Source: Escherichia coli
Lineage (GTDB): Bacteria > Pseudomonadota > Gammaproteobacteria > Enterobacterales > Enterobacteriaceae
Direction: 5' to 3' (one strand)
DNA length: 64,000 nucleotides
NCBI RefSeq assembly: GCF_003334815.1
Contig: NZ_QOWO01000011.1
Shown here piece by piece: positions 33,001-39,000 of the stretch. Made by a program: the position numbers. Positions within the stretch are counted from its first letter, which is position 1, and each line of letters begins with the position of its first letter.

Positions 33001-36000
33001 TTCCGCGAAATGGCACCCGCCAAAGCGACCCGCGATATGTTCCTCGATGATCAGGGCAACCCGGACAGCAAAAAATCACTCACTTCGCATCTGGCTTCCG
33101 GCACACCGGGTACGGTAGCAGGTTTCTCGCTGGCGCTGGATAAATACGGCACCATGCCGCTGAACAAAGTCGTGCAGCCCGCGTTTAAACTGGCACGCGA
33201 TGGTTTTATCGTTAACGACGCGCTGGCTGACGATCTCAAAACCTACGGTAGCGAAGTGTTGCCGAATCACGAAAACAGTAAAGCTATCTTCTGGAAAGAG
33301 GGCGAGCCGCTGAAAAAGGGCGACACGCTGGTGCAGGCGAACCTGGCAAAGAGCCTGGAGATGATTGCTGAAAACGGCCCGGACGAATTCTATAAAGGCA
33401 CGATTGCGGAACAGATCGCCCAGGAGATGCAGAAAAACGGTGGCTTGATCACTAAAGAAGATTTAGCAGCCTATAAAGCGGTCGAACGCACTCCGATAAG
33501 CGGCGATTATCGCGGGTATCAGGTTTACTCCATGCCACCGCCATCCTCCGGCGGGATCCATATCGTACAAATCCTCAATATTCTGGAAAACTTCGATATG
33601 AAGAAATACGGCTTTGGCAGCGCCGATGCGATGCAAATCATGGCAGAAGCGGAGAAATACGCCTACGCCGACCGCTCGGAATATCTTGGCGACCCGGATT
33701 TTGTCAAAGTACCGTGGCAGGCGCTGACCAATAAAGCCTATGCCAAATCTATTGCCGATCAAATTGATATCAATAAAGCGAAGCCATCCAGCGAAATTCG
33801 CCCCGGCAAGCTTGCGCCTTATGAGAGTAATCAAACTACCCATTACTCAGTGGTGGATAAAGATGGTAACGCGGTGGCGGTGACCTATACGCTGAACACC
33901 ACCTTCGGTACGGGCATTGTCGCGGGCGAGAGCGGTATTCTGCTTAATAACCAGATGGATGATTTCTCCGCCAAACCGGGCGTACCGAACGTTTACGGGC
34001 TGGTGGGCGGTGATGCCAACGCCGTCGGGCCGAACAAACGCCCGCTGTCGTCGATGTCGCCGACCATTGTGGTGAAAGACGGTAAAACCTGGCTGGTTAC
34101 CGGTAGCCCAGGCGGTAGCCGGATCATCACTACAGTGCTGCAAATGGTGGTGAATAGCATCGATTATGGCTTGAACGTCGCCGAAGCGACCAATGCGCCG
34201 CGTTTCCACCATCAGTGGTTGCCGGACGAGCTGCGTGTCGAAAAAGGGTTTAGCCCGGATACGCTCAAGCTGCTGGAAGCAAAAGGTCAGAAAGTGGCGC
34301 TGAAAGAGGCGATGGGCAGTACACAAAGCATTATGGTTGGGCCGGACGGTGAGTTGTACGGCGCATCCGACCCGCGCTCGGTGGATGATTTAACGGCGGG
34401 GTACTAAGGTTAGCGGCCCTCTTCGTGGGAAGAGGGCTATTTTGTCAGGGCAAGCCGAAGGTAGCCTTTTTTATTTCGTAATCCTGTAGATATTCTTCCA
34501 GCGGTTTTGCCGTTCCCAGAGAATGAATTTCACCACTGTCTTTATCAATAATAAAAGGTGCGTTACCAGCTAAGCGCGCGGCCTCATCTCCAGTTTCGAG
34601 AAATTCTCGTGCTTCGAAACAGAAATACCAGCCCTGGCTAAAGCGTCCATGTAGAGTAATGACGACCGGGAGATCTGCATCATCAAGGTAATGGTTCGCT
34701 TTCGCGAATGCGTCGTGATAAGTAATCATAATTATAATAAATATTATTGTTGAGTGTTATATTATTATTCCTGTGTGATACATTGAGCAAAGACGCGTTC
34801 ATCTTCGTCAAAGATATTATTAAATGCTGGTTTTGAAAAAAGTTCATCGGATAAGATATAGTCACGAAATAAGTATCTGCTAATATTTTATGATTTCTTT
34901 TTCAGAACGTCGAACGGGATTTTCTTATTTAAGATATCAGAATCTTATGATTCGGGTAAAATTCTAAATAAATCAACATGTCATTAAAATCATCATAGCC
35001 ATTAGCTATTTCGGCTAAAATAGAGACTACATGTCTTCGGTCCATCTCACTTAAGGAGTGTAGTTCCGTTGTAAGTTTTTCCATAGCTTGCACTGCTAAA
35101 TTTCGAACAAGGAATTTTCTGCTGGTAATCTCTAAAAAGATGGCATGGTTTACAATGATTTTTGTTTCCTTTTGATTATTATGAACAACTGTCCATGATT
35201 TCGTTTAAGAATGAAGAGAAATCACTAAACGAACTGAATATATTTTCTGTGCCAATATTATCTCTAATTTCAAAAAAGTTACTTTTAATGTCATAAGTAA
35301 ATATTGAAATGCTATAATCCCCGATCACTAACCGTTCTTGTAGATCAGGGTTTATGAAATCATCATTATTTCTATAAAATTCATTTACGGCAAAAAGGTT
35401 TTTAACTGAAGGTTCTGGAATCGAGAGGCTAAATAATCGTAATCCATTAACTTCGAATCCATCCATTGCTCTTAAAAAAGTAAGATAATCAGGTTGATTC
35501 TTAAAAAGAATACTAACTTCATTACATAACTTCTCCAGGCAATTAGTTGAATTAGAATTAAATTCTATTTGGATTATACTTTCAATAAATGATTCCTTGA
35601 GCGGTGCTTCAAATGGATAGTCTAAATCATTCATCATTTTTATTAATTTATTTATTTGGGTTTTAGTCATCATTTTGTGTGGTCCATAATATTTTTCATG
35701 GGAGGATAAATTGAGCCAGATGGAATGGCCCAGGGAGTGATTTTGCTTTCACCTACTAATATTCCCTTAGCTATTCGTGATTGCATGTTAGTAAAAACTT
35801 TATGATATGGTTCGTTTTCGATTAATACTAAATTTTCGAAATCATTAGTACCACCATCATCTAGAGATAGTTTATGGTGAACATTATAATTTAGAGGAAC
35901 ATTGCCCTTTCTCATTCTTAAAAGGTCTTCGGCGTTGAATCTTCCAGATGCTTCGGAGGTTTTTGCAAGTTTGATAAGAAAATTTTTTCTTACAGTTTTA

Positions 36001-39000
36001 TTAAACTCCTTTCGTAAGTTAGCTAAGTCTTTTGAAGGTCTCTTAATGTATATTATTTCTATTATGTCTATACCATCAAGAAGTTTTTGTTGACCTCTAA
36101 GTTTGCCTAAGTAACTATTTATTTCTGTATATGTATCAACATTAGAACGCTTTGTTAAAAGAATAGATGCTGTTGCTATCGCTATGCCCGCTGTTTTTTC
36201 ATTTAGTATTTGATCATAGCCTTTTATTGCATCTCCACCCAGTTTTTCCGCAGTATCTCTGAATCCTTCAATGTTCCCATTGTATACGCCACCAGCAGCA
36301 AGTAGCCTGCCAATAGCTTTGCTGTTTAACGTTTTGAAACGATTATTTGTTTGGTTTTTTGAATTTGGTAAAAACAAACGGTTATAATTTTCAGGGAGTG
36401 CCAAATAGCTGAACTCGGTATTTGCGATAAGATGTTGACAGAGGATAAATTCATAACTAATAGTTATTGTTTCTGTATCCAGTTGGTTTTCAATGATCTG
36501 GTGATGAATAGCCGATAAAAAAGCGCCTCTTAGTTGTATATAATAATACTTTTCCAATCTACCAAATCTATTTATTCGATAGAAGTCAAATCCCATAAAT
36601 AATTGTTCATTATTGTTAATGGAATTAATAAATAATGGAGTGCTTTTATCAATTAATTTACAAAATGTTATACCATGGAACTGTGAACCAAGCCCCGTAT
36701 TATTAATATTATTTAAGAGTGAGAATGTAAATATTTCATCCTCATGCCCGCTCTGCCAACGATTACCTGTAGACTCAGAAGTCCCACAACCTGCGGAGAT
36801 GCTTCCTTGTTGTTCTCCCGTTACTGTCAGGTAAACAATATTACTCATCCCTGAAAAGTCCTTTTATGGCATGCTATTTTATCAATGGCAATATTATGCT
36901 TGTTAATTGTTATTTATTTACTCCAGGAAATTGTAGGCGTATATATTAAAAAATAAAATATTACACTTTAGGAAGTAATTATGAGTTAAATCTCAATATA
37001 TGTATTGGGCAAATAAATACCTTAAAGGAAGGTATGTCGATTTTGAATGACACCCTTTTTCCATCTCAGAAAAAGGGCACTATCTTACTTCACCCGCGCC
37101 ATATAATATGCATCGACATATTCACCATTACGCAATGCGTACTTCTTACCAGTCCCTTCAATTTCAAAGCCGTATTTTTTATAGACCTTAATTGCCGGGG
37201 CGTTATCGACAAACACGGTTAGTTCAATGCGATCTACCCGCAACCAGTTGTCGCACATTTCAATCATCTCTCGCATCAGGGCGCTGGCGACGCCGCGGTT
37301 CTTCCAACGAGAGTCGACACAGATACCAAAATCGGCAACATGACTGCGGCGTGGGCGCTGTTGCACGTCAATGGTGAGATGGCCCACGACGTCTCCATCA
37401 ATACAGGCGACGAGTTGCTTGATGCCGGGACGATCGGCGAGTCGCTCCTGCCACATATGATCGGAAGGATGAGGCACCTGTAGTGTGTTGCAATACACCT
37501 CCGGCTGGGCGTGAATCTGCCTGATGGCCTCGTAATCCCGTGTTTCTGCGTGGCGTATTACTATCTCACTCATTCCTTTGTCCTCTTTGGGGTAAATGTC
37601 CCTTTCAACATCATTGACTTTCAAATGCGAGTCAAATGCATTTTTTTGCAAAAAGTGTTGGACAAGTGCGAATGAGAATGATTATTATTGTCTCGCGATC
37701 AGGAAGACCCTCGCGGAGAACCTGAAAGCACGACATTGCTCACATTGCTTCCAGTATTACTTAGCCAGCCGGGTGCTGGCTTTTTTTTTGATCTTTCGTT
37801 CTCAATTTATCCACGGGAGTGCTTGTGTTCGTTATGCGCACTCCAGTAGGAACCACGTCCGCTTTGCGCTAAGGTGTAAATAACCACCTTAAAAAGGACG
37901 AAATCATGGTCATCAACTGCGCCTTTATTGGCTTCGGCAAAAGCACCACCCGTTACCATCTGCCGTATGTACTTAACCGCAAGGATAGCTGGCATGTCGC
38001 GCATATTTTTCGTCGCCATGCGAAGCCGGAAGAACAGGCTCCCATTTATTCCCATATCCATTTCACCAGCGATCTCGACGAAGTACTAAACGATCCCGAT
38101 GTTAAGCTGGTTGTTGTCTGCACCCACGCGGACAGCCATTTCGAGTACGCGAAACGCGCGCTGGAAGCCGGGAAAAATGTGCTGGTCGAAAAACCGTTCA
38201 CTCCGACACTTGCGCAGGCGAAAGAGCTGTTTGCGTTGGCGAAAAGCAAAGGGCTGACCGTCACGCCGTATCAGAATCGTCGCTTTGACTCCTGCTTCCT
38301 GACAGCGAAAAAAGCGATTGAAAGTGGCAAGTTGGGAGAGATTGTTGAAGTGGAAAGCCATTTTGACTATTACCGCCCGGTGGCAGAAACCAAACCTGGG
38401 CTGCCGCAGGATGGCGCGTTTTATGGCCTTGGTGTGCATACGATGGACCAGATTATTTCTCTGTTCGGTCGCCCGGATCACGTCGCTTATGACATCCGCA
38501 GCCTGCGTAATAAAGCCAATCCTGACGACACCTTTGAAGCGCAACTGTTTTATGGCGACCTGAAAGCCATCGTCAAAACCAGCCATCTGGTGAAAATCGA
38601 TTATCCGAAATTTATCGTTCACGGTAAGAAAGGTTCGTTTATTAAATACGGTATCGACCAGCAGGAAACCAGCCTGAAGGCTAATATTATGCCGGGCGAA
38701 CCGGGATTCGCAGCGGATGATTCGGTCGGTGTGCTGGAGTATGTCAATGACGAGGGCGTGACGGTCAGAGAAGAGATGAAGCCGGAGATGGGCGATTACG
38801 GGCGCGTTTATGATGCGTTGTATCAAACCATCACCCACGGTGCGCCAAATTACGTCAAGGAATCTGAAGTTCTTACCAATCTGGAAATCCTTGAACGCGG
38901 ATTTGAGCAAGCCTCTCCCTCCACAGTAACTCTCGCTAAGTAAGTTTGATGGCCCCTCGAATAGTTCAATTTTTTTGAACAGAGGGGTCAATTTTCACCC

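Follow-up and report, generated by a model that had tools for sequence, protein, structure and literature searches.

Hcp-HNH effector yhhZ and its predicted immunity gene yrhA, very probably the Hcp-ET1/ETI1 pair, at a polymorphic-toxin site of Escherichia coli

What does a gene for a type VI secretion system (T6SS) tube protein, fused to a nuclease, do in a stretch of Escherichia coli DNA in which no T6SS structural gene is annotated? The question is raised by the yhhZ-yrhA locus in 64,000 nucleotides (nt) of contig NZ_QOWO01000011.1 (NCBI RefSeq assembly GCF_003334815.1), and this whole stretch is called the window here. BLAST showed the window to be colinear with the genome of E. coli WS4437A-1 at 99.97-99.98% identity, and the absence of annotated T6SS structural genes from its 64 kilobases (kb) is judged from the annotation of that strain. 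With respect to T6SS genes in these 64 kb the pair is an orphan, as a note made earlier from the sequence alone (the original prediction) had claimed. Calling of open reading frames (ORFs) returned exactly the coordinates given in that note for two genes on the minus strand, the toxin gene yhhZ (hcp-ET1; 392 amino acids; 35670..36848), which encodes the Hcp-HNH fusion, and yrhA (ETI1; 164 amino acids; 35179..35673), predicted to be its SUKH-fold cognate immunity gene. The name yhhZ was also borne out, since the window protein is identical to that of an insertion sequence IS1-bearing K-12-like strain; it is likewise identical to WP_000065894.1 of WS4437A-1. We conclude that the feature is very probably the E. 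coli effector and immunity pair yhhZ-yrhA, published as Hcp-ET1/ETI1. The basis of this conclusion is split: the domains, the catalytic conservation, the co-variation of the two genes and the identity of the locus come from this analysis, while DNase toxicity, neutralisation by ETI1 and dependence on T6SS2 come from the literature.

The N-terminal part of YhhZ was compared with family profiles and with proteins of solved structure. Residues 1-147 (36408..36848, minus strand) matched NCBIfam TIGR03344 at 118 bits, against a cut-off of 58.9, and YhhZ matched Pfam T6SS_HCP with an E value of 2.5e-11. In addition, sequence matches were obtained to the solved Hcp structures 3he1 (Hcp3; 2.3e-11), 6a2v (7.7e-10) and 5mxn (3.4e-9). 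The segment FCKLIDKSTP, taken earlier as an Hcp-like signature, corresponds to residues 62-71 (nt 36636-36665). These results argue for a bona fide Hcp/TssD tube-protein domain, in agreement with the Hcp-like N-terminus first proposed, and the profile hidden Markov model search suggested as a check on it was thus positive. Behind this domain lies a conserved junction, or pre-toxin segment (residues ~150-229; 36162..36401, minus strand), which was delimited by alignment and by tblastn breakpoints. It carries the motif ...TLNSKxxGRLLAAGGxYNGNxxGFR...IAxAS; in the alignment the columns are invariant up to S228, beyond which the C-termini are unrelated, and the breakpoints of tblastn similarity among the toxin variants fall at residues 229-251.

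The C-terminal part, residues ~244-385 (35694..36119, minus strand), is predicted from profile matches, an AlphaFold model and phage homologues to be a colicin/pyocin-type HNH (His-Me finger) DNase toxin domain. Eight residues of the putative catalytic core, H324, H325, D330, D331, G333, N335, N339 and H349 (35802..35879, minus strand), do not vary among 13 full-length orthologues that go down to 51% identity; the codons of H324-H325 lie at 35874-35879, that of N339 at 35832-35834 and that of H349 at 35802-35804. The original prediction had recognised this HNH motif and had placed it at roughly 35750-35845; the motif stands, and the position given was about 35 nt too low, overlapping the actual one. 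A profile built from residues 255-392 matched the DNase of pyocin S2 (4qko; 8.1e-5), the DNase of colicin E7 (2.4-3.7e-4) and Cas8-HNH (5e-4), and also pyocin AP41. The alignment to colicins and pyocins spans the helical lead-in as well as the HH...GG...N pattern, with a deletion of ~12 residues in YhhZ compared to the colicins. In the AlphaFold model, residues 260-385 have a predicted local distance difference test score (pLDDT) of 78-94, and residues 321-360 form a strand-strand-helix arrangement (strands 321-325 and 340-344, helix 345-360; pLDDT 84-94), for which the best Foldseek matches were HNH entries at E>=0.14. Taken together, the invariant residues and the profile match to colicin and pyocin DNases uphold the earlier assignment of a C-terminal HNH nuclease and point to a DNase domain of the colicin/pyocin type.

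The downstream gene had been put forward as a candidate immunity gene. YrhA matched no family in Pfam, and in NCBIfam it scored 122 bits with NF038335, whose cut-off is 55. Relatives of YrhA are few, only 61 being found in 1.84 billion representative proteins, and their alignment shows the motif DYxxFLxxxDGFExNG. The family profile reached the SUKH structure 2icg at 6.5e-4, Pfam SMI1_KNR4 was found at E<=1e-3 in 7 of 29 family members, and the AlphaFold model of YrhA (pLDDT 90.6) superposes on several structures. YrhA is therefore a protein of the alpha+beta SUKH (SMI1/KNR4) fold, and the search of SUKH and other immunity families proposed for it earlier was answered by the family profile together with the NF038335 match. 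SUKH is the commonest immunity fold for nuclease toxins. We also compared the genes that follow the HNH toxin elsewhere. A YrhA homologue lies 3' of the toxin in Citrobacter koseri (67.5% identity), 3' of a DUF8093-HNH fusion at another locus (59% identity) and 3' of the toxin on conjugative plasmids (IncHI2; 27% identity, NF038335 at 125.7 bits), and a YrhA-like gene follows the toxin in Bacillus phage SPR (hhalign probability 98.9%). Where variants without the HNH domain occupy the site between yhhY and ggt, other small genes are found downstream instead. Because the YrhA homologue tracks the HNH toxin across these contexts, YrhA is assigned, from this co-variation of gene neighbourhoods, as the predicted cognate immunity protein of the toxin.

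The two genes share 4 nt, ATGA, in which the stop codon of yhhZ and the start codon of yrhA overlap (35670..35673, minus strand; read directly from the sequence). This overlap had been reported at the same place and had been taken as a sign of toxin-immunity coupling. The overlap itself is confirmed, and it is also annotated in E. coli 55989, NRG 857C and A10. Gaps of 9-19 nt replace it in C. koseri, in a metagenome locus and in the plasmid homologues; the adjacency of the two genes is conserved and the overlap is not. Such 4-nt ATGA overlaps are widespread in bacteria and carry little weight alone.

The same locus is found in E. coli 55989 and in the O104:H4 strain C227-11, where YhhZ is identical to the window protein at 391 of 392 residues (99.7%) and YrhA at 162 of 164. 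In C227-11 the two genes carry the tags AAF13_RS24945 (yrhA) and AAF13_RS24950 (yhhZ), and a review gives Hcp-ET1 the tag AAF13_24945; the agreement is to within one gene. On these identities, the window pair is the same locus as the published Hcp-ET1/ETI1. As described in secondary accounts (PMC6730261, PMC6099711 and the preprint 10.1101/2024.03.05.583533) of Ma et al. 2017 (Virulence 8:1189), Hcp-ET1 is an orphan Hcp-HNH-DNase of STEC004, C227-11 and 55989, whose delivery depends on T6SS2 and which is neutralised by the downstream ETI1. The same accounts speak of a "predicted HNH-DNase activity" with DNA degradation and of DNase-dependent growth inhibition. Three older sources had already described parts of this picture: YhhZ was called an "evolved Hcp" with an HNH domain in 2009 (PMC2907695), fusions with N-terminal Hcp1 appeared in a list of T6SS polymorphic toxins of 2012 (PMC3482391), and YhhZ was placed in His-Me finger group 32 in 2017 (PMC5714182). 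Since a near-identical locus carries the tags cited for Hcp-ET1/ETI1, yhhZ-yrhA is an effector-immunity pair that was known before and has been characterised by experiment. The original prediction had called the locus not wholly undescribed, which is correct and understated. It had also called the delivery route unclear; for T6SS2-positive strains the route is known from the literature, through the T6SS2 delivery reported in these accounts, and the statement holds only for the present genome.

On this basis the following working of the pair is proposed. YhhZ would be a specialised subunit of the T6SS tube, with its Hcp domain built into the Hcp tube or stacked with it. Firing of the T6SS would drive tube and fusion together into an adjacent bacterium, whose DNA the HNH domain would then degrade. 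YrhA, made from the overlapping downstream gene, would protect the producing cell and its kin by binding and neutralising the toxin. The nearby gene yrhB would be a left-over immunity gene against a papain-like variant that occupies the site in related species.

The yhhZ locus is chromosomal and near-core in E. coli, being present in at least 3,758 of 5,426 complete genomes (at least 80% of the locus present). Homologues of YhhZ in Citrobacter, Salmonella and Enterobacter have residues 1 to ~229-251 in common at 62-76% identity and then continue into unrelated C-termini, among which are Gln_amidase/papain-like (Tox-PL1) domains, colicin D domains and others, and the Citrobacter variants occupy the same yhhY-ggt site. 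An Hcp domain, an exchanged C-terminal toxin and an immunity gene directly downstream were all found, and these features of the sequence place yhhZ in a polymorphic toxin locus of the Hcp-ET type. The second gene of interest at this site is yrhB (94 amino acids; 34445..34729, minus strand). YrhB matched Pfam Imm35 at 4.6e-23 over residues 5-83, and it is 72-74% identical to the products of Citrobacter Imm35 genes that lie directly 3' of an Hcp-Gln_amidase gene at the yhhY-ggt site (loci L007, 9161-9439, and L005, 9554-9832). The literature ties Imm35 specifically to papain-like Tox-PL1. When the window was searched by tblastn with seven variant toxins, neither a papain-like toxin nor a remnant of one was found, and only the shared N-terminus matched. 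Because the cognate toxin and any remnant are absent from the window, yrhB is an orphan immunity gene here, predicted to be cognate to the papain-like toxin variant of Citrobacter.

Between yrhA and yrhB lies yrhD, a small ORF annotated with 51 amino acids (34929..35084, minus strand), or 54 amino acids if read from an upstream GTG (to 35093). The possibility that yrhD or the yrhA-yrhB spacer is the remnant of a displaced toxin tip was considered and rejected on the same tblastn result. YrhD had no match in NCBIfam, PADLOC or PHROGs. Elsewhere in E. coli it is a pseudogene, its frame being broken by an internal stop in NRG 857C and shortened in A10, and the Citrobacter loci lack it; yrhD may not be a real gene.

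The junction and the HNH domain (YhhZ residues ~150-382) also occur without Hcp, and PHROGs families match residues 168-382 at 1e-56. In 588 plasmid records, 489 of them conjugative, a protein of ~353 amino acids joins an unrelated N-terminus of ~130 amino acids to the same junction and HNH domain and is followed by a YrhA-family gene. This protein is 47% identical to YhhZ residues 149-382; examples are found on the IncHI2A plasmid NC_021845.1 (L018, 5638-7215) and on a MOBF plasmid of Pantoea (L019, 5635-7215). On IncHI2, where the homologues WP_000902297.1 and WP_020833765.1 are encoded, the pair adjoins the transfer genes trhG and trhH. The C-terminus of this plasmid-type carrier is polymorphic as well. 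A third carrier is formed by DUF8093 (PF26362), which is followed by the junction, the HNH domain and then a YrhA homologue; in chromosomes of Enterobacter and others this pair stands isolated (L009, 8001-9662; L022, 9001-10663). The name DUF8093 was taken from precomputed annotations only, and our Pfam search did not return the family. Just downstream of the pair at L009 are two small ORFs that form a metallopeptidase-like pair, a gene for a lipoprotein and a fragment of Hcp, and apart from this fragment at one locus no T6SS genes were found in the 8-9 kb flanks of the DUF8093 loci. In SPbeta-like Bacillus phages (SPR spr_26/spr_27; L020, 1558-3915), a protein of 628 amino acids ends in ~147 residues that share 44-45% identity with the toxin domain of YhhZ, and spr_27, a SUKH/YrhA-like gene of 152 amino acids, lies 3' of spr_26, so that the toxin-immunity cassette is present in Gram-positive prophages as well.

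The junction thus sits behind two N-terminal domains other than Hcp, and it joins the HNH/YrhA cassette to at least three unrelated carriers, namely Hcp, DUF8093 and the ~130-amino-acid domain of the IncHI2/MOBF plasmids. That this segment of ~80 residues (~150-229) is an autonomous module, with a role in entry into the target cell or as a handle for recombination, and not a passive linker of Hcp, is a speculative proposal that we regard as unlikely. If it were true, delivery of the toxin family could also take paths that bypass the T6SS, for example conjugation, and the "orphan" yhhZ of E. coli without T6SS might not be inert.

A number of observations weigh against the effector-immunity reading, and three other explanations were considered along with them. 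No T6SS lies inside the window. At the aspV site, where a complete cluster of tssA-M, hcp, vgrG and Rhs genes is found in E. coli 55989 (L014, 14526-47083), the 99.98% proxy WS4437A-1 has copies of IS1, ISEc1 and IS66 and a frameshifted Rhs, with no tss genes (L017, 36393-49382), which suggests that its aspV T6SS was lost via IS elements. The sheath genes tssBC of the aspV island of 55989 are present in 2,184-2,280 genomes, and at least ~1,480 genomes that carry the yhhZ locus are without them; in addition, K-12 and B strains have no T6SS according to the literature. In the IS1-bearing K-12-like strain CM2, an identical yhhZ stands beside a yrhA whose product is cut after residue 130 (L013, 1209-2351; window ~35280), and the toxin is therefore not harmful in cis in this strain. 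Insertions of IS1, IS3 or IS5 are found in yhhZ or yrhA of several other strains, and a preprint reports spontaneous deletion of yhhZ-yrhA in topA mutants. The ratio of nonsynonymous to synonymous substitution rates (dN/dS) within E. coli is 0.3-0.5, only moderately below 1, and up to 1.0 for yhhZ, and 0.1-0.6 for yrhA, and these values come from few substitutions, from which weak purifying selection is not told from relaxation. The toxin and immunity genes lie in an AT-rich islet between ggt and yhhY (34730..37084; GC content 31.8%, compared to 52.7% for the whole window), and PMC3661553 lists the promoter islands at yhhZ and at yrhA among those bound by H-NS; because the islet is reported to be H-NS bound, expression would be poor. 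Most of these observations fit the view that the window pair is an evolutionary relic with intact frames, silenced and with no delivery machine, in which YrhA and YrhB would serve at most as immunity against T6SS-positive relatives, and the retained orphan yrhB fits such a defensive role. We give this view a little less than an even chance. Against it, divergent phylogroups have kept intact ORFs and conserved catalytic residues, a near-identical copy is described as active in T6SS2-positive strains in the accounts cited above, and a window of 64 kb leaves room in the genome for T6SSs of other types. The view concerns the state of the genes in one strain and is compatible with yhhZ-yrhA being the Hcp-ET1/ETI1 effector-immunity pair. 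For activity and expression in this strain, we infer that the window copy is probably quiescent.

The plasmid, chromosomal and phage cassettes raise the question of whether the pair has an intracellular role, in the manner of a toxin-antitoxin or anti-phage abortive infection system, or reaches its target by a route other than the T6SS, with Hcp being one of several interchangeable carriers. The Hcp-less cassette on 588 plasmid records, mostly conjugative and beside trhG/trhH on IncHI2, the cassette behind DUF8093 in chromosomes, the PHROGs match and the toxin domain with a SUKH gene in SPbeta-like phages would be accounted for in this way. However, the N-terminal Hcp domain of YhhZ scores well over the family cut-off, none of the four proteins of the locus matched PADLOC at E<=0.01, and the intact toxin beside a truncated antidote in IS1-bearing strains speaks against a classic addiction module. 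SUKH proteins typify the immunity of polymorphic toxins, and not toxin-antitoxin systems, in the literature, and the near-identical Hcp-ET1 is reported to be T6SS2-dependent, so that we consider an intracellular or T6SS-independent action quite improbable. A further set of observations concerns the nuclease. With single sequences, the Pfam HNH match of YhhZ is sub-threshold (E=0.013 for the full length, 0.0031 for the domain alone), Pfam Col-Pyo_DNase gave E=1.9, and of 11 family members only 3 matched Pfam HNH at E<=1e-3. The domain was termed "degenerate" in the 2009 paper (PMC2907695). The position four residues past H349, compared with the last metal-binding histidine of the colicins (E7 H573, E9 H131), is T, I or S in all orthologues, a comparison made by eye since the hidden Markov model alignments end earlier, and the third metal-ligand histidine is thus apparently missing. 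The C-terminal domain could accordingly be a dead HNH relic on a variant structural Hcp, with the downstream ORF unrelated to immunity. A dead site would not be expected to keep H324, H325, D330, D331, N339 and H349 invariant in orthologues as low as 51% in identity, though, and the significant profile match to colicin/pyocin DNases, the strict co-occurrence with an immunity-type SUKH gene in very different contexts and the DNase-dependent growth inhibition described for Hcp-ET1 in the secondary accounts likewise argue for a working nuclease; a dead domain is, in our estimate, very improbable. As for the Hcp half, the structure prediction that had also been suggested as a check was uninformative, the full-length AlphaFold model, made from an alignment of 13 sequences, having pLDDT < 50 there because the alignment is shallow, and Foldseek against the PDB gave nothing significant (best E 0.14; top entries HNH and Hcp). 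The structure route was dropped, and the domain assignment of YhhZ rests on sequence profiles. Finally, the results of Ma et al. 2017 are cited here from secondary sources, two reviews and one preprint. With these points taken into account, the effector-immunity pair Hcp-ET1/ETI1 is retained as the best explanation of the locus.

The gene order around the pair is ggt, yrhB, yrhD, yrhA, yhhZ, yhhY, where yhhY is an acetyltransferase gene. In WS4437A-1 the four ORFs of the site are labelled tssD (yhhZ), yrhA, yrhD and yrhB, and the annotation of the stretch equivalent to the window runs over the 5' end of rhsB, nikR, liv, ugp, ggt, yhhZ, gnt, glg and malT. A scan of 34300-37300 for promoters and terminators found 14 promoter-like sites, compared to 12.6 expected, and 2 terminator-like sites, compared to 1.8 expected, and was thus uninformative. 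The 5' end of rhsB, a polymorphic-toxin Rhs element, is at positions 1-296 of the window (minus strand), ~35 kb from yhhZ. Cross-matches in the colinearity BLAST also revealed dispersed repeats of ~110 nt with ~84% mutual identity at 20984-21104, 26813-26929 and 55024-55130, which may be intergenic repeats of the repetitive extragenic palindromic (REP) or bacterial interspersed mosaic element (BIME) type.

The discovery value of the locus is small, as YhhZ has been known as an Hcp-HNH protein since 2009 and a near-identical copy was characterised in 2017. Its value is that of a documented annotation, of a near-core polymorphic-toxin site of E. coli that has one complete pair and one orphan immunity gene and is detached from a secretion machine. 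The cassettes on plasmids and in prophages are leads, not results, for work on bacterial antagonism or plasmid biology, and they leave the verdict unchanged.

The pair can be compared with five known systems. One is spr_26/spr_27 of SPbeta-like phages, where 142 residues of the toxin domain (YhhZ 244-385) align at 44-45% identity and a YrhA-like SUKH gene lies downstream; there, the toxin is part of a Gram-positive protein of 628 amino acids that lacks Hcp and whose N-terminal region is unrelated. Colicins E7 and E9 and pyocins S2 and AP41 align with YhhZ over the helix-rich lead-in and HH...GG...N and share the predicted chemistry of a His-Me finger DNase. They differ in that YhhZ has the deletion of ~12 residues before HH and an apparent replacement of the last metal-binding histidine, and in that the YhhZ pair has a SUKH-fold immunity protein instead of a four-helix Im protein, and an Hcp fusion instead of receptor and translocation domains. 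The Hcp-ET variants of Citrobacter and Salmonella (among them Hcp-Gln_amidase/Tox-PL1 with Imm35 and Hcp-colicin D) are 64-76% identical to YhhZ in Hcp and junction and use the same yhhY-ggt site, whereas their C-terminal toxins are unrelated and their cognate immunity genes different, the Imm35 partner being left in E. coli only as yrhB. Another is the yhhZ/yrhA' locus of E. coli K-12, which is interrupted by IS1: the IS1-bearing K-12-like strain has an identical YhhZ and the same flanking genes, and its YrhA ends after residue 130, whereas yrhA of the window is intact with 164 amino acids. The last is Hcp-ET1/ETI1 of 55989 and C227-11, which agrees with the window in locus order, in domain order and in the immunity gene downstream; it departs from the window pair by one residue in the toxin (A300T), by two in the immunity protein and by the strain background, in that 55989 has a complete T6SS at aspV and the closest proxy of the window, WS4437A-1, does not.

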